A stretch of 64,000 bases of DNA from an uncultured Chitinophaga sp. (GTDB lineage: Bacteria > Bacteroidota > Bacteroidia > UKL13-3), in the NCBI GenBank assembly GCA_964355075.1, contig CAYHCF010000003.1, forward strand, positions 1,861-65,860, written 5' to 3'. The position numbers and the translations under genes are program-made. Numbering within the stretch: the stretch's first letter is position 1; every line of letters starts with the position of its first letter. The notes below the pieces were generated by a model, which was not told the DNA's origin, did not search any database, and saw only the letters and a program-made list of their open reading frames with translations. Positions 9,323 through 33,017 of the stretch are shown piece by piece.

Positions 9323-12300
9323 TTAGTTCACCTGCAATTTTTTCATATAAACGCGGTCTCCGGTTTGAACCTTTAACAGGTAAAATCCTTTTGGTGAAGT
9401 TTGAAGATCAATTTCTTCTGTTTGTAAATTATTTTTACTGATGATTTTATGCATCACTTCTTTGCCCAACATATCCAAAACAAATACCTGAATATCTTCC
9501 TTCTGAACATCCGCCAAACGAACATGAATCATTCCATTGCTTGGGTTCGGATATACACTCATCAATTTGTCAATATTCATAATGTCTGTTAAACCGCTGG
9601 GTCCTACATATAAAGAACGAATAGCCTCATCAGATTCATTGCCCGATAAATCCTTTACTTTATAGCGAACACTGTACAAACCAATATCATGTGCAAAGGG
9701 TTTTCCATTTTGCAATGGCAAACTATTTATTGCCACCAAATTTGCCCGCATCTGTGCATCGGTATTGTAATTATCTACCAACTGTACCGGAGCATCCACA
9801 TATTCTGTCCACTGAGGAACGTTCACATCGGTAATGTTCAACAGGTTTACAACAGGTTTGGTGGTATCCACCACTCTTATCTCCCTGCTCACCGAATCCT
9901 GGTTTCCGGATGGATCGGTGGCAATATACCAGATGGTATAGCTTCCCAAAACATTCATATTCACTGCGCCTTTTTTTGTTACCACGATGGTATTGGATGG
10001 CCAGTAATTATCGGATACCGTCACCCATGGATCTGCAAATCCACTGAATACCTCTATGGTCATCGGGCTGCTTCCATTCAGGTAAATATTGGGCGATTTT
10101 GTGTCTCTTACCCGCACTTCTACTGCTACCTCATAGCCAATATTTCCGCTTCCGTCTCTTAAATTATACAAGATCAAATAAGTGCCTACCTTGTTTACAT
10201 CTACCGAACCAATCCAGGTTAATACCAAGGCATTTGCTGACCAGAAATTATCGGTTTTCCCAACTATAGTGGCCAGATCAATGGCCGAACCCACCTGCTG
10301 AATGTAAATGTTATTGAACGGTGGAACAATAACCGGTCTGGTAGTATCTCCAACAACGATTGCCCTACTAGCTGTTTTGAAGTATCCAAAGGCATCTGTT
10401 ATCACATAACCGATACTGTAAGAGCCCAGTTTTGAAGTATCCAGATTACTGCTTACTACTACCTGACTGCTGATATCCATTCCCTGATTGTCTTTGGCAA
10501 CATAACCCGGTTCAGTATATTTTTTGTAAACTTCAACATACATGCTTGCCGAACCATTCAGGGTCAGACTCGGGCCGGTTTGATTGAGTATCACATACAC
10601 GGTTCTGTTCAGGGTATCACTCACATTTCCATACAGATCTTTTACAATATAGCGCAGGTAATTGGGTCCCACTTTGCTGGTATCTACCGTCCCAATTGTT
10701 ATATATTTACTGCTGATATCTCCCTCAATATTGTCCATGGATATTACGCCCGGATCTACAAAAGCTTTGTGTACTTCGGTAGCATAGGCAGAGCTGCCAT
10801 TCAATGAAATGCTTGGTTTTACGGTATCCATCGGGAAGTTCACTACATAATCTCTGAATACACCCAAAAACAAGACACTTGGATTCAGTTGGGTACCTGC
10901 ATAGGTAACACCTACTCTCAATCGGGTGCCTCCTAATTGCTGGGTTCCACTGATGGAAATCGTATCTATTTTCTGCAAAATATTGCTGGCCATGTCGTTC
11001 ATCACCAACTCATCATTGGTAAATAAACCATCCATGTTTCTGTCTAACCAGGCTTTTCTGTCCATAGGACTGCTGATACCCGGACGCGCAATCTTTAAGA
11101 CATGTTTCATGCCTCTGTACATATTAGCTGATTGGTTGCCCAATACCATCTGATAGCAAGGCGTAAATGAATTTACTGCGGTATCTAAACCACTTTGTAA
11201 CTGAACCCGGCTAATCCCGATACTGCCATCGGCCAGACCAATATCTGTTAAACACTGTGGCTGATCGTAAGCACCAATATTGATATAATCAACCTTGATC
11301 AGCGAATCGGTACCAAATTGATTGGTTGCAACCAGTTTTACGGTGTATTTGGTTCTTTGGGTAAAGCGGATGATCGGATTGCGGCTGGTTACCACATTGC
11401 CCACTTTTACTGTTCCCATGATGGCCTGATAATTTCCACCGGTAATGATCCAGTTCCATACACTCGGTCCAAACAAACTCTGATCGGTAAACCGGAAGGT
11501 ATCGGTATTAAATCCCTGAACTTTATCTACTGTAAATCTTACCAAAGGTTTTTGGTTGGTAGGCAGGAACAATACATTTTTACAACTGGTATCTGCACCC
11601 AAACAGTTATAGGTTACCAAACATATTTTACGGTAAACGGGAGAGCTTACCACAAAGGTTCTGGTGGCAGTAGGTCCTGTGGAATCATAACCGTTTAAGC
11701 CATCGGTATCCCATGAGTATTGCATGAGGGTTCCTGTTGAGGTATTTGAATACTGAACCGGCTGGTTATGATAAATGGTATCGGGCACCACAATATGAGA
11801 TTGTGGAATGCCATAACTCGCTCCCTTAATAGCCCACCTGATCGAGAAGCCTGCTGAATCATATGGATTTGGTATGGTTCCGTTGCCGGTCATAAATCTT
11901 AAAAACAAGCGGTTGCCACCCCTGATTCCATTATTGATAATGGCTTGTGGCAATACCCCCACACTGGCAGCTCCCAGTTTTCCGATGATAGGTGCGCTTT
12001 GACTCGTTCCGTTATGGATAACGAGTGTATCGGTTGGCAACATCTTAATGCGATCCACAAATAAAAAGATACTATCGGCGCAAGGATTTAGCAGAAAGCC
12101 CGGGCAGCCCGATACCTGCGACCTTGTATAAGAGAAGGCCGGTCCACTCGGACCAAACACAAAGCCCTGATCCCAGCTACTACTGGTTGAGCCACTGCCA
12201 CTGCACATATTTACACTATTGATAACCTCTATATAGTTTTGCTTGCATATCGTATCCCATCCCCGGGCATTCCATACCTGGAGGCAGATGGCATATTTAC

Positions 12301-13399
12301 CCGGAAAGCCTCCAAACAAGAGTGGGTTCTGACCGAGTGGATTAGAGAAGAAATTGGCAAAATACGGATTGGGTACATTCGTTACATCCGGATTGATCGT
12401 CCAGTACCATTGGTTGGGACCGTAAGAGCTGATATCCACCAAGGAGGCATAATCGGCAATACCGATCTTGGTTCGGGCCGAAAAGAAATTGGGCACCGGT
12501 GCTCTGGAGGGCGTATCTACCCAAATGTATTTTACGATGCTATCGCGCAGGGAATCTTTTTTGTAATCATTGATAGAAAGCAGTCGAACCGGCCAAAATC
12601 CTCTCCTTCCAAAAGTATATCTGAATTTAGAATAGTATTTAGCGGTATCAATATAGAGTTGTGAAGTAAAGCCCACATTGGTTCGGGCATAACCGGGATT
12701 TAAAGTTGTTTCTCCGGGCAAATCCCAGTAACTACGAGTCGTATTGGTACTGGTAGATACCAAATCAAACGGACTATTTATCCAAACAGTATCGGTGGGA
12801 ATAGTTGAAGTGGTTGCCTGACTTGGGAAAAAGTTGGCGATGGGCGGTAATGTTAAACCACCTCCTGGCGGAGGAGAAGAAAAGACTTCAATTTCCCTGA
12901 AATTCATATTGGAGCTTTGAGTTCCTCCAACAGTCATATCAATGAACCTGAACATAGAAGTTGATATCGCCGTAAAGTTTATATCCCAACTACAAACAGC
13001 CATATTTGTTTGCGTAAAAGTGGTATGCGTAATCCATGAACTTCCATCCCATCTTTGAAGAGTTCCGCCGTTCATAAAACGGTTGTTTTGTTCCGCATTA
13101 TGAATGGTAATCTTATTAAATGTTACAGTACCTGGCCAAGTAAATTGAATAAAAATTGTTGCTCCAGGATTGGATGCCGCGGAGGTAATCCACATGGATT
13201 GTGTGCCACAGGTTCCATAATTGAGATCATTTAAAGTGGTACAGGCGCCTGTATTGCAGGTACTGGCTGTTGGAGTTGCAAATGGGGCAATATTTGTTTG
13301 GGCATGACTGGAATTTAGAAAGGTTAACACCAATAAGGCTATGGGTAACAATTTTAATGCACCTCTTCCTGTAAAAGTCAGCGGTATTAGTTTACGCAT
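9323..13399 (-). CDS. T9SS cargo protein, paralog C (1358 aa). Discoidin/F5-8 type C-like N-terminal head on the shared body, with a T9SS C-terminal domain.
   Basis: Signal peptide ..LLPIALLVLTFLNSSHAQ. The head (..ATIFIQFTWPGTVTFNKITIHNAEQNNRFMNGGTLQRWDGSSWI..FREIEVF) resembles a galactose-binding-like F5/8 type C domain. The rest matches paralogs A and B, with an identical T9SS C-terminal domain. Confidence 0.85.
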   Translation of the reverse strand: MRKLIPLTFTGRGALKLLPIALLVLTFLNSSHAQTNIAPFATPTASTCNTGACTTLNDLNYGTCGTQSMWITSAASNPGATIFIQFTWPGTVTFNKITIHNAEQNNRFMNGGTLQRWDGSSWITHTTFTQTNMAVCSWDINFTAISTSMFRFIDMTVGGTQSSNMNFREIEVFSSPPPGGGLTLPPIANFFPSQATTSTIPTDTVWINSPFDLVSTSTNTTRSYWDLPGETTLNPGYARTNVGFTSQLYIDTAKYYSKFRYTFGRRGFWPVRLLSINDYKKDSLRDSIVKYIWVDTPSRAPVPNFFSARTKIGIADYASLVDISSYGPNQWYWTINPDVTNVPNPYFANFFSNPLGQNPLLFGGFPGKYAICLQVWNARGWDTICKQNYIEVINSVNMCSGSGSTSSSWDQGFVFGPSGPAFSYTRSQVSGCPGFLLNPCADSIFLFVDRIKMLPTDTLVIHNGTSQSAPIIGKLGAASVGVLPQAIINNGIRGGNRLFLRFMTGNGTIPNPYDSAGFSIRWAIKGASYGIPQSHIVVPDTIYHNQPVQYSNTSTGTLMQYSWDTDGLNGYDSTGPTATRTFVVSSPVYRKICLVTYNCLGADTSCKNVLFLPTNQKPLVRFTVDKVQGFNTDTFRFTDQSLFGPSVWNWIITGGNYQAIMGTVKVGNVVTSRNPIIRFTQRTKYTVKLVATNQFGTDSLIKVDYINIGAYDQPQCLTDIGLADGSIGISRVQLQSGLDTAVNSFTPCYQMVLGNQSANMYRGMKHVLKIARPGISSPMDRKAWLDRNMDGLFTNDELVMNDMASNILQKIDTISISGTQQLGGTRLRVGVTYAGTQLNPSVLFLGVFRDYVVNFPMDTVKPSISLNGSSAYATEVHKAFVDPGVISMDNIEGDISSKYITIGTVDTSKVGPNYLRYIVKDLYGNVSDTLNRTVYVILNQTGPSLTLNGSASMYVEVYKKYTEPGYVAKDNQGMDISSQVVVSSNLDTSKLGSYSIGYVITDAFGYFKTASRAIVVGDTTRPVIVPPFNNIYIQQVGSAIDLATIVGKTDNFWSANALVLTWIGSVDVNKVGTYLILYNLRDGSGNIGYEVAVEVRVRDTKSPNIYLNGSSPMTIEVFSGFADPWVTVSDNYWPSNTIVVTKKGAVNMNVLGSYTIWYIATDPSGNQDSVSREIRVVDTTKPVVNLLNITDVNVPQWTEYVDAPVQLVDNYNTDAQMRANLVAINSLPLQNGKPFAHDIGLYSVRYKVKDLSGNESDEAIRSLYVGPSGLTDIMNIDKLMSVYPNPSNGMIHVRLADVQKEDIQVFVLDMLGKEVMHKIISKNNLQTEEIDLQTSPKGFYLLKVQTGDRVYMKKLQVN

Positions 13400-13496
13400 A
13401 ATAGATAATATTTATTTATTATGCTAAGGTAATCTTTATTCATCTTGTTTTTCTTAATTTTTTCTTAATTTTTTGATTATCGGAGGACATCGAATA

Positions 13497-13535
13497 TAAA
13501 AGGCAGGTAAATCAATCAGATTTACCTGCCTTTTA
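13497..13535 (-). terminator. Candidate intrinsic terminator for scoA.
   Basis: Inverted repeat aggcaggtaaatc / gatttacctgcct with a 6-nt loop, 180 bp downstream of the scoA stop. The T-tract is imperfect. Confidence 0.45.
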
Positions 13536-13574
13536 ATATTACCTTAATGTTTCAATAATTATCCTAAATAATTA

Positions 13575-13600
13575 ATATCAATTCACCTGCAATTTCTATT
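13575..13600 (-). repeat. Orphan relic of the paralog gene 3' end (attcacctgcaatttct), in the same orientation as paralogs A-C.
   Basis: A 17-nt exact match to the reverse-complemented stop-proximal sequence (..KLQVN*) of the family, lying in intergenic DNA 175 bp upstream of paralog C's start codon. Confidence 0.6.
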
Positions 13601-13714
13601 AATAAAAAAATAAATTATAAATCCGATTTGCATGTAGAATATTGAAAAATAGCTTTCAAAAATATTCTAATTAAAATCCGTAAAGCTTATACCAAAAGCC
13701 TTGGGCTAACAGCC

Positions 13715-14413
13715 CTATTTCGCTCTTACTGTAACCTGCTCAATCCGCTTCTCGTAATAGGCGCCTTTAAAAATTCTGTTTACATAAATTCCGGGAGTAT
13801 GAATCATATCAGGGTCCAGCATTCCGGGTTCAACCAGTTCTTCAACCTCTGCTATGGTAATTTTACCTGCCATAGCCATCAAAGGATTAAAATTTCGTGA
13901 AGTAGCCCGAAAGATCAAATTCCCTTGCGTATCGCCTTTCCAGGCTTTTACAATGGCATAATCAGAATCAAAAGCATGTTCAAGTAAATAGGTTTTTCCA
14001 TTAAAATCACGTGTTTCTTTGCCGATGGCAACTTCTGTTCCAACCCCGGCTGGCGTATAAATCGCCGGCATTCCATATCCGCTCGCCATACAACGAGTGG
14101 CTAATGTTCCCTGTGGAATTAACTCAACTTCCAGTTCACCACTCAATAATTGTCTTTCAAATTCGGCATTTTCACCAACGTAAGAGGATATCATTTTTTT
14201 AACCTGTTTTGTTTGCAACAATAAACCGATTCCAAAATCATCCACTCCGGCATTATTGGAGATACAGGTTAAATTTTTTATACCTTTTTTAACCAATTCA
14301 TTAATACAATTTTCAGGGATTCCACATAAACCGAATCCACCTAACATGATCACTGCCCCATCCGGAATATCCTGAATGGCAGCTTTGGCATTTGCAACTA
14401 CTTTATTTAACAT
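13715..14413 (-). CDS. scoA: 3-oxoacid CoA-transferase subunit A (CoA transferase family I, alpha subunit).
   Basis: Full-length similarity to ScoA/AtoD ([10 protein letters not shown].., ..[16 protein letters not shown]-like region [17 protein letters not shown]). Confidence 0.85.
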
Positions 14414-14472
14414 TTAATTATAGAATTATAAGATTACAATAGTTCGACAGGTTCACTATGACAGCAATAGTT

Positions 14473-14491
14473 GTCATCCTGAGCTTGTCGA
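14473..14491 (+). repeat. REP-like dispersed repeat copy (gtcatcctgagcttgtcga).
   Basis: Same motif as the repeat cluster at 49138-49440. Lies in the scoA-clpS intergenic region. Confidence 0.6.
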
Positions 14492-14552
14492 TTAAAAACT
14501 AAATACCGTTCTCGACTCCGCTCGAACTGACAACCAATTACATTGTTTGTTA

Positions 14553-14831
14553 TTATTCCAAAACAGCTGATAAATCCCGGTCACACAATGCCTGGCAGAT
14601 TCCCTGCATATCTTCTAATTCTCCGGATTTAACATTTGCCTTCCCTTTGAAATGAACGATAACAGCACATTGTTCAGCCTGTACCGGATCATGTTCGCAC
14701 ACATCAACCAGACTTTCGATTACCCAATCGAAGGTATTATAATCGTCATTGTACAGAATCACCTTGTGCGAAGGAATATCTTCAACAAATTCTTCAATAT
14801 CTTCTTGCTTTTTAGTTATTTCTTTTGTCAT
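14553..14831 (-). CDS. clpS: ATP-dependent Clp protease adaptor ClpS.
   Basis: A 92-aa protein. The motif ..HKVILYNDDYNTFDWVIESLVDVCEH..AEQCAVIVHFKGKA.. is typical of ClpS. Confidence 0.9.
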   Translation of the reverse strand: MTKEITKKQEDIEEFVEDIPSHKVILYNDDYNTFDWVIESLVDVCEHDPVQAEQCAVIVHFKGKANVKSGELEDMQGICQALCDRDLSAVLE

Positions 14832-14890
14832 TTTTTTTCAAACGGTATAATAAAAAGGATATATTCTGTTCATATACTTTTCATTCATTA

Positions 14891-15544
14891 TCAAGAACTA
14901 CTTATCTCAGGTTTACTATTGAAGTTGAACTTGCTTTCGGAACCTAGCCATAATCTTTTTATATTGGTTCGGTGCGTATATACTGCCATGATTGCAACTA
15001 TTGCACAAAAATAAATAAAAAATTTATCATCCTGGCCATATCTGAACCAAACAAAAAATGGACTAAACAGGCACCCTAATATTGATCCCAGTGAAATATA
15101 TCTGGTAAGCAAAACGGTTAGCACAAAAACTACGACAAATAATACCGAAACTGGCCAACTGATACCCACCATTGAGCCCAAAAGTGTTGCAATGCCTTTC
15201 CCACCCTTAAACCCAACAAATATAGGATAAACATGCCCTAATATTGCAAAAATGGCGAGCAACATTTGTATGTTTCTGAAATCAGTAGTTCCGGGTTCTG
15301 AAGCATATTGAAAAAAGGCCATGGCAGTTGCAGAAAGTCCTTTTAAAAAATCAATTATAAGAACACTGATTCCGGCTTTTTTCCCAAGTACTCTTAAGGT
15401 ATTGGTTGCACCCGCATTTCCACTTCCATGCTTTCGTACATCCACACCATAAAAGGCCTTGCCAATCCATACTGAGGAAGGGATAGAGCCAAGAAGGTAG
15501 GCACCGGCTAATCCCGAGAGGGTATATAATAAGGATGGGTTCAT
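14891..15544 (-). CDS. plsY: Glycerol-3-phosphate acyltransferase PlsY.
   Basis: Polytopic membrane protein with the PlsY signature ..HGSGNAGATNTLRVLGKKAG.. and GFKGGKGIAT. Confidence 0.9.
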   Translation of the reverse strand: MNPSLLYTLSGLAGAYLLGSIPSSVWIGKAFYGVDVRKHGSGNAGATNTLRVLGKKAGISVLIIDFLKGLSATAMAFFQYASEPGTTDFRNIQMLLAIFAILGHVYPIFVGFKGGKGIATLLGSMVGISWPVSVLFVVVFVLTVLLTRYISLGSILGCLFSPFFVWFRYGQDDKFFIYFCAIVAIMAVYTHRTNIKRLWLGSESKFNFNSKPEISSS

Positions 15545-18500
15545 TCTTTTTTCTTCATTGCTTTTACAAACTTATTTCTATCGGATATATTGGCTGTGCG
15601 AATTTTATAATCATCTTTCTCCTTAGAAATTTTGTCAATATTAGTTTTTATAATTTCATTAAACAAGATATCGGAGCTAATCACAGCCATTACTCCTTTT
15701 TGGTATTTAAAATAGTACCAGCTACCCTGAGGCTGTTGTAAGTATATTACCATATCATCTCCTCCGCGGCGTTTGGTGATTTCTATCTTACCTTTTACTT
15801 TGCGTTCAATCTGATATTTTTCGATGCTTCGCAAGCCCATATCTCCAACACTAACATAGGACCGGGTGGGCTGCGACCAGGTCATCGTAAGGTCGCTGAA
15901 GAAAAATGTTTTTTGCAGATCCTCCATGTTTTTACTGCTTATTTCTTCCTCCATATTATCTGAAAGTTTTCGCAGTATTTTTTCATCAACCAATTCGGGC
16001 AGGCTGATTTTAAGAACTCTGGTGTCAAAGTAATCAGATGATGCCTGACTCGATTGTTCACTAATTGAATCGTACATCATTTTTGTTGCCTGAGCAGGAA
16101 GAAGCATATTGACAATCATACTTATTTTCATAATGAATGAAGTGTCCGACAATTTGTAATTTGCGTAACCGGCACTGTGAACAAAAAAACCTTCCGTTTC
16201 AAATCCCAGATTAAATTTGCCATCACCATAAATAAGTTTCTTTTCTTCACTCATGGCCATAAAATTCCCTCGTCCGCCAATACCATATACTTTTTGAAAA
16301 GGCCCTACTCTGAATTCATCAAATTTTTCGATATAGGAAAAAGTTCCTTCACATTTTAACAATTCAGGATCGCTTGTATTTCTCTTACGGGAGAAAAAGG
16401 CAGGATATACATGGGTGGAATCATTTGATACATAAAAACCATTGTACAGAACCTGTCTGTTTAAATTTGTTAATGGCGGAACAAAAGATATGTAAACAGA
16501 ATCAGGATTAATGGTTGCTGTTGCTCTGAACCAATCTGTTTTAGGCAGAAATTGCTGGTGCATGGCTTTGAAGAATCCATTGTATTCAAGATTTTTATCA
16601 AAACTGTGTAGTATCGCATTGCCTCTGAATCCAATTTTTGAACCCACATAAAAATTAATAGAATCAGGTATTAAAGTCTTTCCCTCCAGAAATTTTTTAG
16701 ACACCACATAGATCTGATCGAGATAAAATTTCTGGGGCTTTCTGTTCTTGTCATAATAAGTATAAGTACCGGCGCCTATACAATCTGTTCGTCCGTTTAT
16801 TTTGATAGTCACTTTATCAATGCCATGGTATTTATTTAAAGTATCCGCAATAATTCTTGCATTTAAGAAAATGTCCAAATCGGCATTTGTTCTGATAATC
16901 GCGTTACCGCCATCCGGAATAACACGGCTGTCGGCAATATTAATATAGGGGATTTTACTAACTTTCATCACATAATCACCCAGGGTAAGCAAGGCGCTGC
17001 CTGCAGAGAATCTCAGGCTGTCCTGTGAAGGTTTATTACTTAACAGGTAACTGCCTGCATCCATCTTTTCGGTATTAACCGGACCATTAAACTCAAGTGT
17101 TTTAGGTATCATATCCCATTTAAGTTTCTGAAAGGAACCGTAATAATTGTTCAATACAAAGTTATTATTGATACCGGGGAAATTATTATACGTAAAATCG
17201 GCATATTTCTTTTCCAGATTCACGTAGGCTTTTACCTTTCCGGTTGAAAAAGAAATTTGGGTGGTATCCTTTGGATTTCTTTGTCTGAAAATTGCATCAT
17301 CAGAAAGTAATTCAACCGGTTTCATTTCTATCAAATTGGCAATCAGCTCTCCACCTTCAATGTCCATTCTTCCTTTGGCTTTCATTGCTTTTGGTGTTAA
17401 AATAATGGTTCCGTAAAGTTTGGCTCCATCGTAAGCAATTTTCATAGGTTCACCTTTATTTGTAATAAACATGGTATCCTGCAGTGGAAGCCAATGGGTA
17501 AAAACATTAGGTGATCTGATGATCGTCGGGAATAATGAAGTCCGGTCGTTTTCAAACATATAACTATTTGAATTAACCGAATCAGGCATAAACTCAAACC
17601 GGTGTGAAGAAGTTCTGGAGGCAAGATAGGTTAATGTTCCTTCTCCGATTAAACCATCATTACTTAATCTCAAACTCATATTAGAACTCCCTTTCCCATC
17701 ATATAAACGGTACTTATAGGTTGAATCTCTCGGGATAAAAAAACCAAGAGATTTATCAGGTTGCAAATAGATTTCCTGCCGCATATCAGCCAGGATTCCT
17801 CCCGACACAAAATTTCCGGCAAGTGCCAATGAGTATAAATTCAAATCAGCTAAGCTGTCTAAAGTGAAGGGATCCACATCAAAGTAAAACTTTTCCCGAT
17901 TGTAAACTCCGTTTAGAGTGGTTGGGTAATCATAAAATACTTTTGATCCCACCTCGGAAGTAAAGATGGGATACGTAGGGTATTTTTTTCTGCCCGATTT
18001 ATTATAAGGATAGTCAATTTCAAGAGTACCATAAATATTCTGAATAACACTCTTTACATGTACCATCCTGCCCAGTGAATCATCAACATAAAGGAATTTC
18101 AGAGAGTCAACATTATTGAGCCTGACCTTAAAAGCATTATAATCAAAGGCGAAATTATTTCCGTAAAAATCTACCATCCCCGCTCTTAATTTTCCGCTGA
18201 AATCCATAGCACGGTTTTTCTTTACGGTGAGCATTTGTTCTCTGGGAAGAATATATACATTCTGGGAATCGCTGAAGAAAAATTTTGGCACACCCTGAAC
18301 CACCAGGTCGTTATTTATTAAACTAATATGCGCGTTTGGAATCGCACTGATTGTGGAGCTAAACGAAATGGCATCATAATCCGTTCTGCCATTATGGGCA
18401 TTCACATAATCAATTAATTTACGTTTAACATATACAATATTTTTAGGACCATCAAAGTTCACAAATCCCTTATCATTTAAATCAATCATCTGTATCCTGA

Positions 18501-20127: not shown

Positions 20128-20142
20128 AAATTTGGTTCAATA

Positions 20143-22886: not shown

Positions 22887-22977
22887 AGATAAATCCTATT
22901 TTTGTTCAACAATGTGTTATAATTTTAAAATTTTAAACCGGTCAATCATTTGATAAATGTAAGGGTTTAATAAAATT

Positions 22978-23010
22978 AAAAAAAAAGCCTTCCAAATTGG
23001 AAGGCTTTAC
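22978..23010 (-). terminator. Intrinsic terminator downstream of rpmE.
   Basis: Hairpin agccttcc-aaat-tggaaggct followed on the minus strand by a T run of at least 9. Confidence 0.8.
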
Positions 23011-23026
23011 AATATTACAATTCAGA

Positions 23027-23275: not shown

Positions 23276-23427
23276 TTTCTTTCAAAATTTAGGACCGCGA
23301 AAGTAGGCAAAATAAATCAAAATCAAAATAAATGAAGAAATATTTTTCTCTGGTAATTTTCACTTAAATAATAGGGGTTTGGTTTAAATTCTTTTAAATT
23401 GCCGGACAAATATGTGCAAAAATAGTT

Positions 23428-23925: not shown

Positions 23926-23950
23926 ATTTGCCTGAAAAGTCCATTAACAA

Positions 23951-23983
23951 AAAACCCATCCAGTCAGTAGACGGATGGGTTTT
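23951..23983. terminator. Bidirectional intrinsic terminator between the PyrR-like gene and hup.
   Basis: Hairpin aacccatcc..ggatgggtt with T/A runs on both sides (aaaaaa..tttttt). Confidence 0.8.
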
Positions 23984-24008
23984 TTGTTTTACAAACAAAG
24001 TAAAAATA

Positions 24009-24281
24009 CTATTTTATCTTAGCTTGTAAACCTGAACCTGCTTTGAATTTAACTACCTTTTTTGCAGGGATGTTAATTTCTTTTCCTGTTTGAGGATTGC
24101 GGCCTTTGCGGGCTGCGCGTTTTGTAACTGAGAAAGTACCAAAGCCTACTAAAATAACTTTGTCACCTTTTTTTAATGCACTTTGAGTTGATCCCATGAA
24201 TGCATCTAATGCAGCCTGAGCTTGAACTTTAGTAACACCGGCAGCTTTTGCCATTGAATCAATTAAATCTTGTTTGTTCAT
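24009..24281 (-). CDS. hup: HU family DNA-binding protein. Start trimmed to the internal Met (MNKQDLIDSMA..).
   Basis: Classic HU fold signature ..GFGTFSVTKRAARKGRNPQTGKEINIPA... The 24 upstream codons in the ORF-track call are unlikely to be translated. Confidence 0.85.
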   Translation of the reverse strand: MNKQDLIDSMAKAAGVTKVQAQAALDAFMGSTQSALKKGDKVILVGFGTFSVTKRAARKGRNPQTGKEINIPAKKVVKFKAGSGLQAKIK

Positions 24282-24422
24282 AATTATTATGTGTTTTAAG
24301 GGTTTTTGCTTAACAAACATAGTAAACACAATCAAAAAGTCAAGCCTTTTCAAGCGCTAACGCAAAAAATAATCTTTTTTTTCTTTAACAAGTTTTCAAC
24401 AAATTCCTTTTTTGCTTGAATT

Positions 24423-24962
24423 TTAGACTGATATATTTTCGGATTTAATAAGCTCAAGCACCTGAATATAAAGGGATTTGTAAGATTTTACTGGCAATAA
24501 AAAACTTGCTTTTGCCTGAGCAAAGACCGGACTTCTTTTGTAGTATAAATCGCAAATATTTTTTTCTAATTCTTCTTTATTTAGCGTTTTAAACAGAGGT
24601 CTTGAGGTTTTTGAGTCAAAAATGCGACTCATTAAAAGTGGAATTGGTGCATTCAAATAGATCGTTATACCATGATTATTCATCCAAATCATGTTGTTTT
24701 CATAAATTGGAGTACCTCCTCCACATGCTATTACTATTTGTTCTGATCTTTCAGTTTCAAACAGAATTCTTTTTTCAATTTCTCTAAAATAGGATTCGCC
24801 GTCTAAAGCAAAAATGTCTGAAATATTTTTCTTTTCCTGTTGTTCAATTAAATGATCCAGATCCGCAAAGTCCCAGTTAAGGTATTTTGCCAATTTTTTC
24901 CCTAGCGTACTTTTCCCGCATCCTGGCATACCAATTATATAGATCCGATTCTGAATATTCAA
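24423..24962 (-). CDS. aroK: Shikimate kinase.
   Basis: Walker A motif IIGMPGCGKST and the overall AroK fold (..DLD..IE..). Confidence 0.9.
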   Translation of the reverse strand: MNIQNRIYIIGMPGCGKSTLGKKLAKYLNWDFADLDHLIEQQEKKNISDIFALDGESYFREIEKRILFETERSEQIVIACGGGTPIYENNMIWMNNHGITIYLNAPIPLLMSRIFDSKTSRPLFKTLNKEELEKNICDLYYKRSPVFAQAKASFLLPVKSYKSLYIQVLELIKSENISV

Positions 24963-24974
24963 GTCAATAAAAAA

Positions 24975-26093
24975 TTATTGCTGCATGTATTTGAGCACGG
25001 TATTATAGGAAGGTAAATTAAAGGCTCCCCATTTTTTTATTACCTTATCTTTTTTCAATAGCAGTAATCCGGGATTTGAACGCACCATGGATTTGATAGG
25101 TGTTCCATCCATATTAAAATAATTAAAAGGCAATTCATTTTCTGCTTTATAAGCATTAGCTTCTGAAAGATTAGAAGCTGTTAACGCCCAGAATTCTAAA
25201 CCTTGTTTCATCCATTGATTGGATAATTCAGCGATTTGAAGCCCACTTCCTTTACGACTATCTTTTATATTAAGCTGAACAAAAATTAGTTTATAGGTAT
25301 CTTTCGCAAAGATGCTGTCTGTGTACTCAACACCTGCTTCATCATAAATTTTAAAATCATGAATGAGCGGTTTAAATGGTTCTTTGATAACTTTATCGAT
25401 CCGGTCAATAAATTTATACTGATCAATATCCTGTGGTAATGTTTTGACGGTAAATTCGAATTTCTCACCTGCTTTTTCATAAATAAACAGCATCTCATAT
25501 TCTCCTTTCGATTCCCCTTCAGGAATAATCATTAATTCCTGTAAATGGTTGCCAATTTTATAAGGAAGAAAATCAACAACAGGTAAAAACATATAAGTAT
25601 AAAAAGTGAAGAAAGTAGAAATCAGTAGAGATACCGATAATAAAATATTCATTAATACTTTATTGAATAATGGCCTGATATGTTTGATGCCGGAGAATAT
25701 GACTAAAATGAAGACCAATAAAACAACATCTTTCATAAAACTTCCAAAAGGCTTAAGCTTTATAGCATCACCAAAACATCCACAATCGGTCACCTTATGC
25801 GTAATGGCGCTGTATCCCGTTAACAGGGTAAAAAATACAATCAACAATAAGAGTAACCATGCATTTAATCTTGCATATATTCCTAATAATAACGCCACCC
25901 CCGAAACGATTTCGAAAATGCAGATAAGCATGGAAAATGCAACTGCATAAGGTGCAAAAAAAGAAAGATTAAACAGGTCAAAGTATTCAACCAATTTATA
26001 ACTAAAACCGATCGTATCATTTGCTTTTATTAATCCTGAAATAATAAAAAGTACACCTACAAAAATTCGACTAAACTGTGTGAGAAATTTCAT
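24975..26093 (-). CDS. BT_3928-family membrane protein: DoxX-like N-terminal domain plus a thioredoxin-like C-terminal domain. Start trimmed to MKFLTQF...
   Basis: Four TM helices with a DCGCFGD motif, followed by a soluble TlpA-like C-terminal half. The upstream Lys-rich extension in the ORF track is probably untranslated. Confidence 0.6.
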   Translation of the reverse strand: MKFLTQFSRIFVGVLFIISGLIKANDTIGFSYKLVEYFDLFNLSFFAPYAVAFSMLICIFEIVSGVALLLGIYARLNAWLLLLLIVFFTLLTGYSAITHKVTDCGCFGDAIKLKPFGSFMKDVVLLVFILVIFSGIKHIRPLFNKVLMNILLSVSLLISTFFTFYTYMFLPVVDFLPYKIGNHLQELMIIPEGESKGEYEMLFIYEKAGEKFEFTVKTLPQDIDQYKFIDRIDKVIKEPFKPLIHDFKIYDEAGVEYTDSIFAKDTYKLIFVQLNIKDSRKGSGLQIAELSNQWMKQGLEFWALTASNLSEANAYKAENELPFNYFNMDGTPIKSMVRSNPGLLLLKKDKVIKKWGAFNLPSYNTVLKYMQQ

Positions 26094-26365
26094 AATTTGA
26101 TAAATTAATTTATTAGTGAATATAAAAATATATTTATTGGGGAGCCCACCCTGTTTCTGCTTTTTTTTGTTTCTTTTCCATCCATCTGACCCGGGCAAAA
26201 ATACAATTAATTATCTTATCTATATATTCAGGTTCCATCCTTCATCAATATTCCGGCTCCCTTTTGTTACTAAATTTAGGATTCGGATGGTCTTGATGTA
26301 TATTTGATGCATAATTTAGGTTTTTATTTTCTGTTTTAAACGCGAAATTAAGGGAGGAGGTATAA

Positions 26366-27208
26366 TTGCAGGCATTATTAAGAAAAAATTTAATAAATTG
26401 TAAGGGAAAGATTCTCAACCTGGAGAAACCGGCCATTATGGGTATCCTGAATGTTACCCCTGATAGTTTTTATGCTTCTAGCAGAGTTCAGGATGACAAA
26501 AGCATATTGATGATGGCTGAAAATATGTTAAAAGAGGGAGCATCCATATTGGATGTGGGTGGGCAGTCAAGCAGACCGGGTGCTGAGTTATTGTCTGATG
26601 TGGAAGAACTAGAAAGAGTTATTCCGGCTATCGAGATCATAATTAATGAATTTCCTGACGCTATTATTTCAATTGATACTTTTTATGCAAGGGTAGCAAA
26701 AGCGGCAATTGGGGCAGGTGCGTCTATCATCAATGATATTTCAGCAGGTGATGATGATGACCAGATGCTGGAATCAGTTGCCTCCCTGAAAGTACCTTAT
26801 ATTATCATGCACAAAATGGGTTTGCCACAGGTTATGCAGGAAAATCCACATTATGAGGATGTAGTAGGGTCGGTATTAAATTATTTTACGCATAAGGTGA
26901 CTCAACTTCAACAATTGGGCGTACCGGATATCATTATTGATCCCGGATTTGGATTTGGCAAAACGCTGGAAAATAATTATCAATTGTTGACAGGTCTGGA
27001 TGCGTTAAAAATATTTGAACTTCCGGTATTGGTTGGAGTTTCACGAAAGTCAATGGTCCAAAAATTGTTGAATATTAATACCGACAATGCATTGAACGGG
27101 ACTACTGCCTTACATATGATAGCGCTCCAAAAGGGAGCAAGAATATTAAGAGTTCACGATGTGAAAGAAGCAATGGAATGCATAAAAATTGCAGATGCCA
27201 TTAAATAG
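26366..27208 (+). CDS. folP: Dihydropteroate synthase.
   Basis: Pterin-binding DHPS motifs: MGILNVTPDSF, ILDVGGQSSRPG, DPGFGFGKT. Confidence 0.9.
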   Translation: MQALLRKNLINCKGKILNLEKPAIMGILNVTPDSFYASSRVQDDKSILMMAENMLKEGASILDVGGQSSRPGAELLSDVEELERVIPAIEIIINEFPDAIISIDTFYARVAKAAIGAGASIINDISAGDDDDQMLESVASLKVPYIIMHKMGLPQVMQENPHYEDVVGSVLNYFTHKVTQLQQLGVPDIIIDPGFGFGKTLENNYQLLTGLDALKIFELPVLVGVSRKSMVQKLLNINTDNALNGTTALHMIALQKGARILRVHDVKEAMECIKIADAIK

Positions 27209-27313
27209 ATGGCTGTTTTGTTTGAGAAATAAATAAGGTGAGAAGAACGCATGTTTTTCTAAAAATACGGGGTTAAGTTGTCTTTTTTGCTTTTTTTTAT
27301 TTAGTATCGTAAC

Positions 27314-28138
27314 ATGTACAAGGGAAATTTTGAAATAGCCGATTATCATTTTACACTCATCAATATAATTGATTTATTGTTAGTGGTATTGCTATCATTT
27401 CAGCTTTTTAAATTGTTGAAAGGTAGTTTGGCTTTCAATATTTTAATTGGAATTATCACCATTTATATGTTTTGGCTTTTGGTACAATACTTCGAAATGC
27501 CACTGTTAGCCGGTATATTAGGAGAGTTTACTAAGGTTGGTATTATTGCTGTTTTGATCGTTTTTCAGCAGGAAATCCGAAAGTTTTTGTTGATTATTGG
27601 CAATAGCTCTTTACTTGGCGAAAATAAAAGGTGGTGGAATATCTTTCCCTGGAAATGGAAAATCAAAGATGCATTCAATACGCCATTTGATGAAATCGTA
27701 GAGGCCTGCAGAGAACTGGCAAATGATAAATCAGGTGCGATTTTGGTTTTTCCTATTACCTCAGAAATGAAGTTTATCGGAGCAAGTGGCGAAATGATTG
27801 ATGCCAATATTACCAAACGACTCTTATTAAGCATTTTTAATAAAACCAGTCCTTTACATGATGGAGCCGTAATTATAGCAAATGGTAAAATTAAAGCGGC
27901 AAATTGTGTTTTACCTATTAGCGAAAACCCGCTTGTTATCAATAAATATGGGTTACGACATCTTTCGGCGATCGGTATTACCGAGCAAACTGATGCGGTT
28001 TGTTTGGTTGTAAGTGAAGAAAAAGGAATTATCAGTTATGTAAAAGAAGGGAAAATTGAAGAAGGTTTATTAGCAGAAGAAATAATTGACCGGCTCAATG
28101 AACAATTCTCTAAACAAATGGTTACCATTGGGGAGTAG
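27314..28138 (+). CDS. cdaA: Diadenylate cyclase (c-di-AMP synthase), CdaA/DacA type.
   Basis: Three N-terminal TM helices followed by a DAC domain with the LHDGAVII and RHLSAIGITE motifs. Confidence 0.85.
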   Translation: MYKGNFEIADYHFTLINIIDLLLVVLLSFQLFKLLKGSLAFNILIGIITIYMFWLLVQYFEMPLLAGILGEFTKVGIIAVLIVFQQEIRKFLLIIGNSSLLGENKRWWNIFPWKWKIKDAFNTPFDEIVEACRELANDKSGAILVFPITSEMKFIGASGEMIDANITKRLLLSIFNKTSPLHDGAVIIANGKIKAANCVLPISENPLVINKYGLRHLSAIGITEQTDAVCLVVSEEKGIISYVKEGKIEEGLLAEEIIDRLNEQFSKQMVTIGE

Positions 28139-28204
28139 CTGAATTAATTAAATAAATACGGATTCTAAATATTGTCTCGGGTAACCATATTTACCGATTG
28201 GGGA

Positions 28205-28696
28205 TTAATTTCTAAAATTTTCAAACTGAAGCGGAACCTCAAAATCCGTTTGGCGGAGATTGGCCATCAGCTCCTGTAAATCATCTATTTTTTTCCCTGT
28301 TACCCTTACCTGATCCTCATGAATTGCTCCCTGAAGTTTATTGAAGGATGCCTTGATATATGCCACAATCTTTTTTGCAGTTTCCTTTTCAAGACCTTCT
28401 CTTATTTTCAAATCTTTTAAAATGAGCTTTCCACTGGGTCTGGATTCTGCACTTAAGTCAATTGTTCTCACATCAATACCTTGTTTGCTCAATTTCCCCA
28501 AAACAATATCAATCAAAGTTTTCATTGCCATCTCTTGCTTGGCTTCAAGCTTTAATAATTTTGTTTTCTTGTCTAATTCAATCGCACAGGATTCGTCTTT
28601 TAAATCATAACGATTCAACAATTCCTTCTTTGCTGTATTAATCGCATTGTCAATTTTTTGTAAATCTATTTTACTTACAATATCAAAACTTGGCAT
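28205..28696 (-). CDS. yajQ: YajQ family nucleotide (cyclic di-GMP)-binding protein.
   Basis: A 163-aa UPF0234/YajQ signature: MPSFDIVSKIDLQ..N at the N-terminus and Q..FEVPLQFENFR at the C-terminus. Confidence 0.85.
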   Translation of the reverse strand: MPSFDIVSKIDLQKIDNAINTAKKELLNRYDLKDESCAIELDKKTKLLKLEAKQEMAMKTLIDIVLGKLSKQGIDVRTIDLSAESRPSGKLILKDLKIREGLEKETAKKIVAYIKASFNKLQGAIHEDQVRVTGKKIDDLQELMANLRQTDFEVPLQFENFRN

Positions 28697-28994
28697 AATG
28701 TTTAATTAAATGATTAATAATAAGCCTTCCGGTACATTTAAATTTAATGGCAACTGCAAAGGTAAACATTCACCATATAAAATTGCATTCTCAAACAGTT
28801 TCTACCTTTTGCTTTAAAAATTTTATTAAAGGAGGCATGAACCAACTACTTAAAGAAAAAATTGATTCGGTCAACTCTTTACTTCTTTGCCTGATACTGA
28901 AATTGTTAATCTTTTTCACAATCTGAAAAATTATTGTTGTTTTTGACTTTTTTTTTTATCTTCGGAGAATAATAATTTGTAAAATATCTCAACT

Positions 28995-31900
28995 ATGAAA
29001 AAACATATACCAATTAAATCCTTTAGTGCCCTTATTATTTTCTTTTTTTGCTTTTCTAACCTCAAAGGGCAATCATCGTTCAATATGTGTTCATCCAACC
29101 CCGGAGCAATCTATTCTCTCACAGGGTCATTTTATGATTCTGGTGGCCCATCAGCTAGCTATTTAGACAATGAAAATTGTACAGTTTTATTTACCGCCCC
29201 TCCGGGAGGTACCATTAGCTTAACATTTAATTCCTTTGCCACCGAAGCTAGTTGGGATTATATGCAGGTTTATGATGGAAACAGCATTTTGGGTATTCCT
29301 CTGCACCCTACAACCGGGGGTTCCGGTTCCTCAGGTTATGGTCCCGGATTTAATGGAACCGTAACCGGCCCTTTTACGCTGGTTGCAACTACCGGTTATA
29401 TGTTTGTTCAGTATAGAAGTGATGCCTCAGTTACTTATGCCGGTTGGAACGCCAATTGGGTGATGACTACTCCTGGTTCAGGTCTAGCCTTACCCCCCAT
29501 CGCCAACTTTTTCCCAAGTCAGGCCACCACAAGCTCCATACCCACCGATACCGTTTGGATAAACAGCCCTTTTGATTTAGTGGCTACCAGTACCAGTTCG
29601 AGCAGAAGCTATTGGGATCTACCCGGAGAAACAACTCTGAACCCGGGTTATGCCCGAACCAATGTGGGCTTTACTTCACAACTCTATATTGATACCGCTA
29701 AATACAGTTCAAAATTCAGATATACTTTTGGCAGAAGAGGTTTCTGGCCGGTTCGCCTGCTTTCTATCAATGCCTACAAACGAGATTCCCTGCGCGATAG
29801 CATCGTGAAATACATTTGGGTGGATACGCCCAGCAGAGCGCCCGTTCCTAATTTCTTTTCGGCCCGAACCAAGATCGGTATTGCGGATTATGCCTCCTTG
29901 GTGGATATCAGCTCTTACGGTCCCAACCAATGGTACTGGACGATCAATCCGGATGTAACGAATGTACCCAATCCGTATTTTGCCAATTTCTTCTCTAATC
30001 CACTCGGTCAGAACCCACTCTTGTTTGGAGGCTTTCCGGGTAAATATGCCATCTGCCTCCAGGTATGGAATGCCCGGGGATGGGATACGATATGCAAGCA
30101 AAACTATATAGAGGTTATCAATAGTGTAAATATGTGCAGTGGCAGTGGCTCAACCAGTAGTAGCTGGGATCAGGGCTTTGTGTTTGGTCCGAGTGGACCG
30201 GCCTTCTCTTATACAAGGTCGCAGGTATCGGGCTGCCCGGGCTTTCTGCTAAATCCTTGCGCCGATAGTATCTTTTTATTTGTGGATCGCATTAAGATGT
30301 TGCCAACCGATACACTCGTTATCCATAACGGAACGAGTCAAAGCGCACCTATCATCGGAAAACTGGGAGCTGCCAGTGTGGGGGTATTGCCACAAGCCAT
30401 TATCAATAATGGAATCAGGGGTGGCAACCGCTTGTTTTTAAGATTTATGACCGGCAACGGAACCATACCAAATCCATATGATTCAGCAGGCTTCTCGATC
30501 AGGTGGGCTATTAAGGGAGCGAGTTATGGCATTCCACAATCTCATATTGTGGTGCCCGATACCATTTATCATAACCAGCCGGTTCAGTATTCAAATACCT
30601 CAACAGGAACCCTCATGCAATACTCATGGGATACCGATGGCTTAAACGGTTATGATTCCACAGGACCTACTGCCACCAGAACCTTTGTGGTAAGCTCTCC
30701 CGTTTACCGTAAAATATGTTTGGTAACCTATAACTGTTTGGGTGCAGATACCAGTTGTAAAAATGTATTGTTCCTGCCTACCAACCAAAAACCTTTGGTA
30801 AGATTTACAGTAGATAAAGTTCAGGGATTTAATACCGATACCTTCCGGTTTACCGATCAGAGTTTGTTTGGACCGAGTGTATGGAACTGGATCATTACCG
30901 GTGGAAATTATCAGGCCATCATGGGAACAGTAAAAGTGGGCAATGTGGTAACCAGCCGCAATCCGATCATCCGCTTTACCCAAAGAACCAAATACACCGT
31001 AAAACTGGTTGCAACCAATCAATTTGGTACCGATTCGCTGATCAAGGTTGATTATATCAATATTGGTGCTTACGATCAGCCACAGTGTTTAACAGATATT
31101 GGTCTGGCCGATGGCAGTATCGGGATTAGCCGGGTTCAGTTGCAAAGTGGTTTGGACACCGCGGTGAATTCATTTACGCCATGTTATCAGATGGTATTGG
31201 GCAATCAGGCGGCTAATATGTACAGAGGCATGAAACATGTCTTAAAGATTGCCCGTCCGGGTATTACCAGTCCAATGGACAGAAAAGCATGGTTAGACAG
31301 AAACATGGATGGTTTGTTTACCAATGATGAGTTGGTGATGAATGACATGGCCAGCAATATTTTGCAGAAAACAGATACGATTTCCATTAGTGGAACCCAG
31401 CAATTAGGGGGCACCCGATTGAGAGTAGGTGTATCCTATGCCGGTACCCAACTGAATCCGAGTGTCTTGTTTTTGGGGGTATTCAGAGATTATATAGTGA
31501 ACTTCCCGATGGATACCGTAAAACCAAGCATTTCATTGAATGGCAGTTCATCCTTTACTACCGAAATTCACAAAGCTTTTGTAGATCCGGGCGTAATATC
31601 CATGGACAATATTGAGGGAGATATCAGCAGTAAATATATAACAATTGGGACGGTAGATACCAGCAAAGTGGGACCCAATTACCTGCGCTATATTGTAAAA
31701 GATCTGTATGGAAATGTGAGTGATACCCTGAACAGAACGGTGTATGTGATACTCAATCAAACCGGACCAAGTATCGCCCTGAGTGGTTCAGCCAGCATGT
31801 ATGTTGAAGTTTATAAAAAATATACCGAACCGGGTTATGTTGCCAAAGATAATCAGGGAATGGATATCAGCAGTCAGGTAGTAGTAAGCAGTAATTTGGA

Positions 31901-33017
31901 TACTTCAAAACTGGGTTCATACAGCATAGGATATGTAATAATAGATGCCTTTGGTTTCAGTAAATCAGCCAGTAGAGCAGTAGCAGTTGGAGATACCACA
32001 AGACCGGTTATTGTTCCACCTACGGGTAATATTTACATTCAGCAGGTTGGATCGGCCATTGACCTGGCCACTATAGTTGGGAAAACCGATAATTTCTGGT
32101 CTACAAATGCCTTGGTATTAACCTGGCTGGGTTCGGTAGATGTAAACAAGGTAGGTAGCTATGTGATCTTGTATAATTTAAGAGACGGAAGCGGAAATAT
32201 TGGCTATGAGCTTGCAGTAGAAGTGCGGGTAAGAGACACAAAAGCGCCAAATATTTACCTGAATGGAAGCACTCCGATGACCATAGAGGTATTCAGTGGA
32301 TTTGCAGATCCATGGGTGACGGTATCCGATAATTACTGGCCATCCAATACCATCGTGGTAACAAAAAAAGGCGCAGTGAACATGAATGTTTTGGGTAGCT
32401 ATACCATCTGGTATATTGCCACCGATCCATCCGGAAACCAAGATTCGGTGAGCAGGGAGATAAGAGTTGTGGATACCACCAAACCTGTTGTAAACCTGTT
32501 GAACATTACCGAGGTAAATGTTCCACAGTGGACGGAATATGTGGATGCTCCGGTGCAGTTAACAGATAATTACAATACCGATGCACAGATGCGGGCAAAT
32601 TTGGTAGTAGTGAATAATTTGCCATTACAAAATGGAAAACCCTTCGCACATGATATTGGTTTGTACAGTGTTCGCTATAAAGTTAAGGATTTGTCGGGCA
32701 ATGAATCAAAAGAAGCTGTTCGTTCCTTGAATGTTGGAGCGAGTGGCTTAACAGACATCATGAATATTGACAAATTGATGAGCGTATATCCGAACCCGAG
32801 CAATGGTTTGATTCATGTTCGATTGGCGGATGTGCAGAAGGAAGATGTTCAGGTATTTGTTTTGGATATGTTGGGCAAAGAGCTGATGCATAAAACAATC
32901 AGTAAAAATAATTTACAAACAGAAGAAATCGATCTTCAAACTTCACCCAAAGGATTCTACCTGTTAAAGGTTCAAACCGGCGACCATATTTATATGAAGA
33001 AATTGCAATTGAATTAA
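28995..33017 (+). CDS. T9SS cargo protein, paralog D (1340 aa). CUB-like N-terminal head on the shared body, with a T9SS C-terminal domain.
   Basis: Signal peptide MKKHIPIKSFSALIIFFFCFSNLKGQ. The head (CSSNPGAIYSLTGSFYDSGGPSASYLDNENCTVLF..FNSFATEASWDYMQVYDGNS..YMFVQYRSDASVTYAGWNANW) fits the CUB pattern. The body is the reverse complement of paralogs A-C. The C-terminal domain ends ..YMKKLQLN. Confidence 0.85.
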   Translation: MKKHIPIKSFSALIIFFFCFSNLKGQSSFNMCSSNPGAIYSLTGSFYDSGGPSASYLDNENCTVLFTAPPGGTISLTFNSFATEASWDYMQVYDGNSILGIPLHPTTGGSGSSGYGPGFNGTVTGPFTLVATTGYMFVQYRSDASVTYAGWNANWVMTTPGSGLALPPIANFFPSQATTSSIPTDTVWINSPFDLVATSTSSSRSYWDLPGETTLNPGYARTNVGFTSQLYIDTAKYSSKFRYTFGRRGFWPVRLLSINAYKRDSLRDSIVKYIWVDTPSRAPVPNFFSARTKIGIADYASLVDISSYGPNQWYWTINPDVTNVPNPYFANFFSNPLGQNPLLFGGFPGKYAICLQVWNARGWDTICKQNYIEVINSVNMCSGSGSTSSSWDQGFVFGPSGPAFSYTRSQVSGCPGFLLNPCADSIFLFVDRIKMLPTDTLVIHNGTSQSAPIIGKLGAASVGVLPQAIINNGIRGGNRLFLRFMTGNGTIPNPYDSAGFSIRWAIKGASYGIPQSHIVVPDTIYHNQPVQYSNTSTGTLMQYSWDTDGLNGYDSTGPTATRTFVVSSPVYRKICLVTYNCLGADTSCKNVLFLPTNQKPLVRFTVDKVQGFNTDTFRFTDQSLFGPSVWNWIITGGNYQAIMGTVKVGNVVTSRNPIIRFTQRTKYTVKLVATNQFGTDSLIKVDYINIGAYDQPQCLTDIGLADGSIGISRVQLQSGLDTAVNSFTPCYQMVLGNQAANMYRGMKHVLKIARPGITSPMDRKAWLDRNMDGLFTNDELVMNDMASNILQKTDTISISGTQQLGGTRLRVGVSYAGTQLNPSVLFLGVFRDYIVNFPMDTVKPSISLNGSSSFTTEIHKAFVDPGVISMDNIEGDISSKYITIGTVDTSKVGPNYLRYIVKDLYGNVSDTLNRTVYVILNQTGPSIALSGSASMYVEVYKKYTEPGYVAKDNQGMDISSQVVVSSNLDTSKLGSYSIGYVIIDAFGFSKSASRAVAVGDTTRPVIVPPTGNIYIQQVGSAIDLATIVGKTDNFWSTNALVLTWLGSVDVNKVGSYVILYNLRDGSGNIGYELAVEVRVRDTKAPNIYLNGSTPMTIEVFSGFADPWVTVSDNYWPSNTIVVTKKGAVNMNVLGSYTIWYIATDPSGNQDSVSREIRVVDTTKPVVNLLNITEVNVPQWTEYVDAPVQLTDNYNTDAQMRANLVVVNNLPLQNGKPFAHDIGLYSVRYKVKDLSGNESKEAVRSLNVGASGLTDIMNIDKLMSVYPNPSNGLIHVRLADVQKEDVQVFVLDMLGKELMHKTISKNNLQTEEIDLQTSPKGFYLLKVQTGDHIYMKKLQLN

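Follow-up and report, generated by a model that had tools for sequence, protein, structure and literature searches.

Does a block of housekeeping genes lying between facing copies of a surface-protein gene serve as an invertible switch, or does the layout record some other history? This question is raised by a 64,000-nucleotide (nt) stretch (the window) of a genome from an uncultured freshwater member of the Bacteroidota, a Chitinophaga sp. (contig CAYHCF010000003.1), in which five long paralogous genes, A–E, flank a 15.6 kilobase (kb) housekeeping block. An original prediction held that recombination between facing copies would invert the block and exchange the 5' parts of the genes (heads) between differing bodies, in the manner of a shufflon. 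We conclude that the locus is probably a rearranged and expanded family of type IX secretion system (T9SS) surface proteins evolving by gene conversion, and not a dedicated inversion switch. The genes (product lengths in amino acids, aa), the repeats and the block in question are the following:

691-4827, minus strand: paralog A, predicted T9SS cargo, 1378 aa, GEVED-type head; tail adjoins hlyD via a bidirectional hairpin at 627-663
4985-9124, minus strand: paralog B, predicted T9SS cargo, 1379 aa; head without Pfam match, 31% identical to head G (copy G is described below)
9323-13399, minus strand: paralog C, predicted T9SS cargo, 1358 aa, DUF7402-like head; left inner arm, head adjoins scoA
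28995-33017, plus strand: paralog D, predicted T9SS cargo, 1340 aa, CUB head; right inner arm, head adjoins yajQ
33234-37388, plus strand: paralog E, predicted T9SS cargo, GEVED head; tail adjoins tilS, the ancestral end of the array
9318-12859, minus strand: left arm of the innermost inverted repeat, 3542 nt, 94% identical to 29481-33022
29481-33022, plus strand: right arm of the innermost inverted repeat, partner of 9318-12859
2579-3771, 6861-8053 and 11199-12391 (minus strand), 29949-31141 and 34320-35512 (plus strand): 1193-nt core, identical in all five copies
13400-28994: housekeeping block between C and D, 15,595 nt, 14 genes (11 on the minus strand, three on the plus strand)
4934-4969, minus strand: terminator-like hairpin in the spacer between B and A; comparable ones lie between C and B, between D and E, and after scoA

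Anatomy of the paralogs and their repeats

The geometry on which the original prediction was built is present. Open reading frame (ORF) coordinates place A–C on the minus strand and D and E on the plus strand, with the N-termini of C and D facing inward, and the kb-scale inverted repeats do bracket the 15.6 kb segment. A repeat search found eight inverted-repeat pairs, with an equivalent pair for each minus/plus combination of paralogs; the innermost arms are 16.6 kb apart, and the length and identity of these repeats are far beyond chance. The housekeeping genes that had been named, scoA through yajQ, all lie in the segment together with four further genes, the full order being scoA, clpS, plsY, a gene for a 1461-aa protein, tpiA, NTP_transf_4, rpmE, PRTase, hup, aroK, MauE/DoxX, folP, cdaA and yajQ.

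The five proteins (1340-1384 aa) share one layout, as seen by Pfam scan and in the translations: a hydrophobic signal peptide, a head of 165-209 aa, a stalk of about 1175 aa and a C-terminal Por_Secre_tail. The Pfam scan found in the stalks an internal GEVED domain, PKD and HYR signals, and four Bact_surface_Ig-like domains. In each of the five proteins PF18962 (Por_Secre_tail) covers the C-terminal ~75 residues (E = 2e-14 to 2e-13), and all five translations begin with hydrophobic N-termini ending in GQ, SQ or AQ, which we judged to be predicted Sec signal peptides. For paralog E the signal peptide begins at an ATG at 33291, which is probably its translation start. T9SS machinery is encoded in the same window, at 55.2-62.6 kb: PorV, PorU (Peptidase_C25 plus CTD) and two PorP/SprF proteins. 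With a sorting domain, a signal peptide and the machinery all in evidence, A–E are, as read from sequence, complete T9SS cargo proteins.

Five-way alignment resolved three zones: unrelated 5' heads of ~500-630 nt; a segment of ~400 nt at 84-99% identity that leads into the stretch identical in all copies; and a mosaic 3' half at 80-100% identity. The boundary between head and stalk is sharp, homology starting abruptly at an LPPIANFF junction. The exact run shared by C and D extends to 1256 nt, and B and C are identical over ~2 kb, nearly to the end of the gene. The identical cores that had been predicted are thus found, exact over 1193 nt in all five copies, but this identity is assembly-dependent and likely inflated, as described below. 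The C-terminal thirds, which had been called divergent, do differ, but only mildly: of the 51 residues (among 1175) at which the stalks of C and D differ, 31 fall within the last third, and only A has a strongly divergent patch in its tail (~300 nt). An exchange between C and D would alter at most these 51 residues (~4%) and would switch nothing on or off.

Tandem copies are separated by spacers of 157-216 nt with strong terminator-like hairpins; the copies thus look like separate transcription units. Within B (5351-5824) and C (9689-10162) there are identical antisense ORFs of 157 aa, both on the plus strand, which are most likely spurious by-products of gene repetition.

Relatives, orthologous heads and homogenised stalks

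We found relatives by scanning GTDB species representatives with the central NTP_transf_4 protein of the block; with a best match of 74% identity, none of the representatives returned belongs to the species of the window itself. An orthologous housekeeping block occurs in dozens of uncultured freshwater Bacteroidota. All seven species with enough flanking sequence (L010-L013, L016, L017 and L040) share the gene order from yajQ to scoA, have scoA immediately beside hlyD and lack a left arm. On the opposite flank, past yajQ, relatives carry genes for MbnP and CCP_MauG, then three to four paralogs on one strand, then tilS, lptD and a gene for a large PKD protein. Full arrays of three to four copies in a single orientation were found in B1(2017), on a 2.88-Mb JGI contig, in a third species (on 23 contigs) and on the L094 contig, and in the first three of these the array visibly ends at tilS. 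That scoA abuts hlyD in relatives, with direct arrays at tilS, marks the A-B-C left arm as a lineage-specific relocation, and the position of those arrays between yajQ and tilS marks the D-E-tilS side of the window as the ancestral site. The comparison of synteny that the original prediction had proposed as a check therefore reveals a lineage-specific rearrangement, but not an inverted layout conserved in the family, and block orientation is the same in at least seven species. Judged from gene order, the 15.6 kb block still lies as it did ancestrally with respect to hlyD on one flank and tilS on the other.

We considered whether the left arm might be a recent inverted duplication and rejected this, because heads A and C are distinct ancient types present in the relatives' single direct array; A–C are thus relocated members, not new copies of D and E. 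The MbnP and CCP_MauG (di-haem peroxidase) gene pair that lies between yajQ and the first paralog in relatives (L008 1-1376, L095 3743-5604) is missing from the window, where D directly follows yajQ (28697-28994). A search of JGI metagenomes with the head-C peptide returned four loci matching head C alone and none matching the shared stalk, and was uninformative on arrangement.

The genome carries seven family copies in all: A–E in the window, and F (1370 aa) and G (1401 aa) at a separate locus between an OEP/ABC-transporter operon and DUF6642/radA, on contigs of similar coverage (L002 5696-14206, equivalent to ERZ4201063 NODE_51; also L003). A gene with an F-type head lies inside the main array, beside a C-type gene, in L094 and L095; thus the family has dispersed to three sites here. 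We also asked whether positions 1-690 of the window duplicate the HlyD/ABC locus that precedes F and G, and rejected this for want of any nucleotide match.

Heads have orthologs across species, mostly at 49-77% identity, with one C-type match at 38%. Two relatives carry A-type heads at 72-77% identity; for C-type heads the figure is 71% in B1(2017) and 38-50% in three further relatives, and D-type, E-type and F-type heads are 58-68%, 62-65% and 64% identical to relatives' heads, compared with 31% identity at most between different heads of the same genome. Stalks show the opposite pattern, being 92-100% identical within the genome versus 62-65% between species, and the same contrast of homogenised stalks with orthologous heads was found in B1(2017) and L009. 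Among A–E every one of the ten possible 2-versus-3 site partitions is found, clustered into tracts (DE 41, BC 40, AB 14, AE 14, BE 11, AD 9, AC 8, CE 4, CD 3, BD 2), so no single tree fits the five genes. The cross-arm partitions (such as AE, BE and AD) indicate that sequence exchange includes both arms, with the reservation that a few of the site assignments depend on the assembly. Stalks that are alike within a genome and divergent between species, joined to orthologous heads, point to concerted evolution by gene conversion, stopping at the LPPIANFF boundary. The heads of the family (GEVED, CUB, DUF7402-like and others) appear ancient and look like binding modules.

We infer that the ancestral state was one direct tandem array between yajQ(-MbnP-MauG) and tilS, and that in this lineage A, B and C moved to the far side of the scoA–yajQ block in inverted orientation. 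RecA-type homologous recombination between stalks would keep these 92-100% identical, with heads staying distinct and orthologous between species, and the kb-scale inverted repeats would be a by-product of this history of relocation and homogenisation. Two inversions might have produced the layout. Starting from a direct array D-B-A-C-E between yajQ and tilS, an illegitimate inversion of the segment from scoA through yajQ, D, B and A, with breakpoints between hlyD and scoA and in the A–C spacer, would make both novel junctions (hlyD with tail A, scoA with head C) and leave the block inverted between D (minus strand) and C (plus strand). Homologous inversion between the stalks of D and C would then restore block orientation and swap heads, giving hlyD, A-B-C (minus strand), scoA through yajQ, D-E (plus strand) and tilS, that is, the window layout. 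The A-type then C-type order in B1(2017) and L009 fits this model, as does the D-type head being the paralog head nearest yajQ in L010 and L022. We regard the two-inversion path as a real possibility, if at somewhat less than even chances; the alternative, a single cut-and-paste translocation of A-B-C in inverted orientation, predicts the opposite order of A and C.

Probable assembly collapse and competing explanations

To gauge the reliability of the contig we turned to SPAdes-named ENA assemblies of the same region from three samples (ERZ4201064 NODE_25, ERZ4201063 NODE_73 and ERZ4201065 NODE_3606). The five window proteins match exactly NCBI entries on a contig of 179,679 bp, a length shared by ERZ4201064 NODE_25; DNA outside the paralogs is 100% identical between the window and the sister assemblies, and every one of the 26, 20 and 38 mismatches to the three sister assemblies lies inside paralog cores. 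Each assembly has one core haplotype in all its copies, and the haplotype differs between assemblies: S245L is found in A–E and F of ERZ4201064, and S245L, T392I and A417S in C, D, E, F and G of ERZ4201063. The simplest reading of such uniform cores is that true differences between copies were collapsed by the assembler, which took one path per bubble; with haplotypes differing between assemblies, part of the 1193-nt core identity is thus probably due to assembly collapse. The perfect core is an upper bound, and true between-copy identity may be perhaps ~98%. Relatives on Mb-scale contigs also show core tracts that are 98-100% identical between copies, so homogenisation is a genuine trait of the family.

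Several points weigh against our preferred reading of the locus as a relocated family homogenised by gene conversion. At fine scale the mosaic depends in part on the assembly: the ENA version of the contig and the NCBI one, equal in length, assign stalk residues 556 and 667 to copies that are not the same. The phasing of heads with tails across the collapsed core may also be less than fully reliable, a doubt countered by the agreement of two independent assemblies (ERZ4201063 and ERZ4201064) on five of the links. Promoters were not positively identified: the Bacteroidota -7 motif TAnnTTTG occurs upstream of A, C and E only, and is absent at B and D, and the site of C sits ~265 nt from its start. 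Finally, the evidence consists of assembled contigs, from which inversion-isomer frequency and true between-copy identity cannot be read.

Carried further, doubts of this sort would make the inverted geometry partly fictitious, SPAdes having mis-resolved paralog copy number, order and head-to-tail links, and perhaps the placement of the left arm. The SPAdes contig names, the uniform core haplotypes that differ between assemblies while unique DNA is identical, the breaks of other contigs (L003, L005, L006 and L007) exactly at the head/core boundary, and the ~2 kb identity of B and C are all what such an artefact would leave. However, both novel junctions lie in unique sequence; that between scoA and head C recurs in four independent assemblies or contigs, and that between hlyD and tail A adjoins the uniquely divergent tail of A. 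The heads of A–E are all distinct, so there must be at least five genes, and the links from head to tail to neighbouring gene are the same in ERZ4201063 and ERZ4201064. That the head-C gene reads away from scoA and the head-D gene away from yajQ is certain, which leaves inverted repeats around the block; we therefore think an artefact of this extent unlikely.

The opposite view would take the arms at face value, as maintained by selection because frequent inversion through homologous recombination re-assorts heads and stalks and diversifies the cell surface, a functional analogue of the sap inversions of Campylobacter fetus. The original prediction that homologous recombination would invert the block and exchange heads holds as to means, in that the geometry and repeats are adequate (exact runs of at least 1193 nt) and cross-arm sequence sharing is evident, but no flipped arrangement was seen. 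The layout might also be reached from the ancestral array with a C–D homologous inversion as the last step. Nonetheless every copy is complete, with its own signal peptide, spacer and terminator, the stalks that C and D would exchange are nearly the same, and the inversion would also reverse 14 housekeeping genes. Relatives hold all their copies in direct orientation, so that the inverted layout is not a family feature, and assemblies from three samples show a single arrangement. In contigs spanning a whole copy no alternative arrangement was seen (ERZ4201063, ERZ4201064 and, in part, ERZ4201065 agree with the window). This is weak evidence, since all three samples belong to a single series and the core cannot be phased with short reads; moreover, inversion leaves local junctions unchanged, so short-read assemblies cannot reveal minority isomers. 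All told, we hold adaptive high-frequency inversion to be quite improbable, while recombination-driven inversion as such is plausible and may have happened, perhaps once in the past. Least probable by far, and one that we would give hardly any credence, is a site-specific recombinase system, a true shufflon or invertase locus, whose short sites would lie at the head/stalk boundary. Surface loci under invertase control are common in Bacteroidota, and the sharp onset of homology at LPPIANFF would suit such sites, but the same sharp boundary occurs in relatives with purely direct arrays, and the repeats extend over kilobases of coding sequence whose identity is graded and mosaic (80-100%), unlike short conserved sites on either side of divergent segments. 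No integrase, invertase or resolvase domain turned up when all substantial ORFs of the 64 kb were scanned against Pfam. The likening of the locus to a shufflon thus fails, since its genes are complete and there is no recombinase in the 64 kb, no short site and no copy that looks silent.

An intermediate position is that surface-protein paralogs on either side of the essential-gene block may have inverted it by homologous recombination, in the course of the D-B-A-C-E two-inversion history, and may do so still. As a full account of the locus we consider this doubtful, about on a par with assembly artefact; if minority isomers do exist, concerted evolution of T9SS adhesin stalks would create a reversible chromosomal flip, checked by selection on gene orientation. 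Under the preferred reading, of relocation and gene conversion, the inverted repeats are likewise well able to support inversion of the 15.6 kb block by homologous recombination, and isomers should arise now and then. We infer that such events are rare: inversion would merely re-pair heads with stalks ~4% different and reverse the 14 housekeeping genes, so the observed orientation is probably the favoured and dominant one. It is correct in principle, as had been pointed out, that inversion of the block would flip its genes relative to the direction of replication. The conserved orientation of the block in relatives is compatible with selection, although those relatives are without inverted repeats anyway.

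Neighbouring features and known systems

Other features of the window are as follows:

62-613, plus strand: HlyD-family gene (3' part in window), marking the ancestral left boundary; adjoins scoA in relatives
37460-40349: tilS (minus strand) and an lptD/OstA-like gene (plus strand), the conserved right boundary of the ancestral array in relatives
55228-56505: porV
56550-60425: porU
60562-62593: two porP/sprF genes

From ~62630 a lipoprotein ORF, GldJ/PorK-like by eye, runs off the end of the window. Directly after lptD lies a gene for a T9SS cargo protein of 2845 aa with PKD repeats (40451-48988, plus strand), whose position is kept in B1(2017) and L009 at 61-62% identity. A gene for an AddA/RexA-like helicase-nuclease (UvrD helicase plus PD-(D/E)XK nuclease; 51432-54680, minus strand) lies ~14 kb from the array; enzymes of this type initiate recombination, but its presence here is probably coincidental. 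Within the block, the 1461-aa ORF (15541-19926, minus strand) matches no Pfam family and shares 4 nt with plsY; its large product, to which no function has been assigned, recurs at 49-80% identity in over 20 related Bacteroidota genomes, its gene there too lying between tpiA and plsY. The spacer between tpiA and NTP_transf_4 (20908-21671) is 764 nt here versus ~30 nt in several relatives (e.g., L011-L013 and L018). It is comparatively GC-rich, has a 59-nt imperfect inverted repeat (20999-21057 and 21347-21403, 80%) and a 51-aa ORF called by ENA, lacks any Rfam match, and may be a small inserted element. No tRNAs, and no Rfam families at gathering threshold, were found in the 64 kb window. We considered a replication origin inside the block and rejected it, as DnaA boxes are not enriched (22 matches versus 24.6 expected) and GC skew merely tracks the coding strand.

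The potential for repeat-mediated inversion and the concerted evolution of surface-protein families are both already well known. In the sap system of C. fetus, sapA homologues that face opposite ways undergo nested DNA inversion through their conserved 5' regions. The primary papers on this inversion are Dworkin & Blaser 1997 and Tu et al. 2001, both listed in PMC1950947. The likeness is that oppositely oriented surface-protein paralogs share a conserved block, where recombination inverts the intervening DNA and re-pairs gene parts. In sap, however, a single promoter lies on the invertible segment, one homologue is expressed and inversion changes phenotype, whereas here each copy looks autonomously expressed; the separate spacer of each copy and the terminator after the preceding gene appear to argue against a single sap-type promoter. 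The sap genes are conserved at the 5' end and variable in the body, while here the 5' head is variable and the bodies to be exchanged are ~96% identical; moreover, the invertible DNA here is 15.6 kb of housekeeping genes, and no inversion has been observed. Classical shufflons (R64 Rci/sfx) and the invertase loci of Bacteroides fragilis employ a dedicated recombinase, short repeat sites, one expressed constant part and several silent parts. They have in common with our locus inversion that re-assorts parts of surface-protein genes, but their recombinase, short sites and silent parts are absent here.

In Staphylococcus aureus, chromosomal inversion takes place between paralogous inverted hsdMS loci through nearly perfect repeats of 1,748 bp; it is reversible, spans a large part of the chromosome, causes a phenotype (small-colony variants), and was reportedly unaffected by recA inactivation (PMC6778178). 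As here, these are near-perfect paralog inverted repeats of more than 1 kb that allow hybrid alleles, and inversion between them is invisible to standard Illumina sequencing because the homology exceeds the fragment length (PMC6778178); the span here, though, is 16.6 kb and there is no documented isomer or phenotype. The rgpA, kgp and hagA genes of Porphyromonas gingivalis share identical adhesin repeats, are combinatorially modular, and are broken or collapsed in short-read assemblies (PMC5266723). They differ in being dispersed, in having other modules (cleaved adhesin domains, DUF2436) and in not being described as an inverted pair around a conserved block (PMC5266723). On these likenesses the closest mechanistic analogue is C. 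fetus sap and the closest documented genomic analogue the S. aureus hsdMS inversion.

At present the main practical value of the locus is as a caution: collapsed repeats in short-read metagenome bins can yield seemingly perfect kb-scale repeats, and the same collapse leaves head-to-body phasing and block orientation undetermined. If isomers were found, the locus would be a natural case in which recombination between adhesin paralogs can flip a block of essential genes, and would also illustrate how T9SS families join conserved orthologous heads with stalks homogenised by gene conversion.

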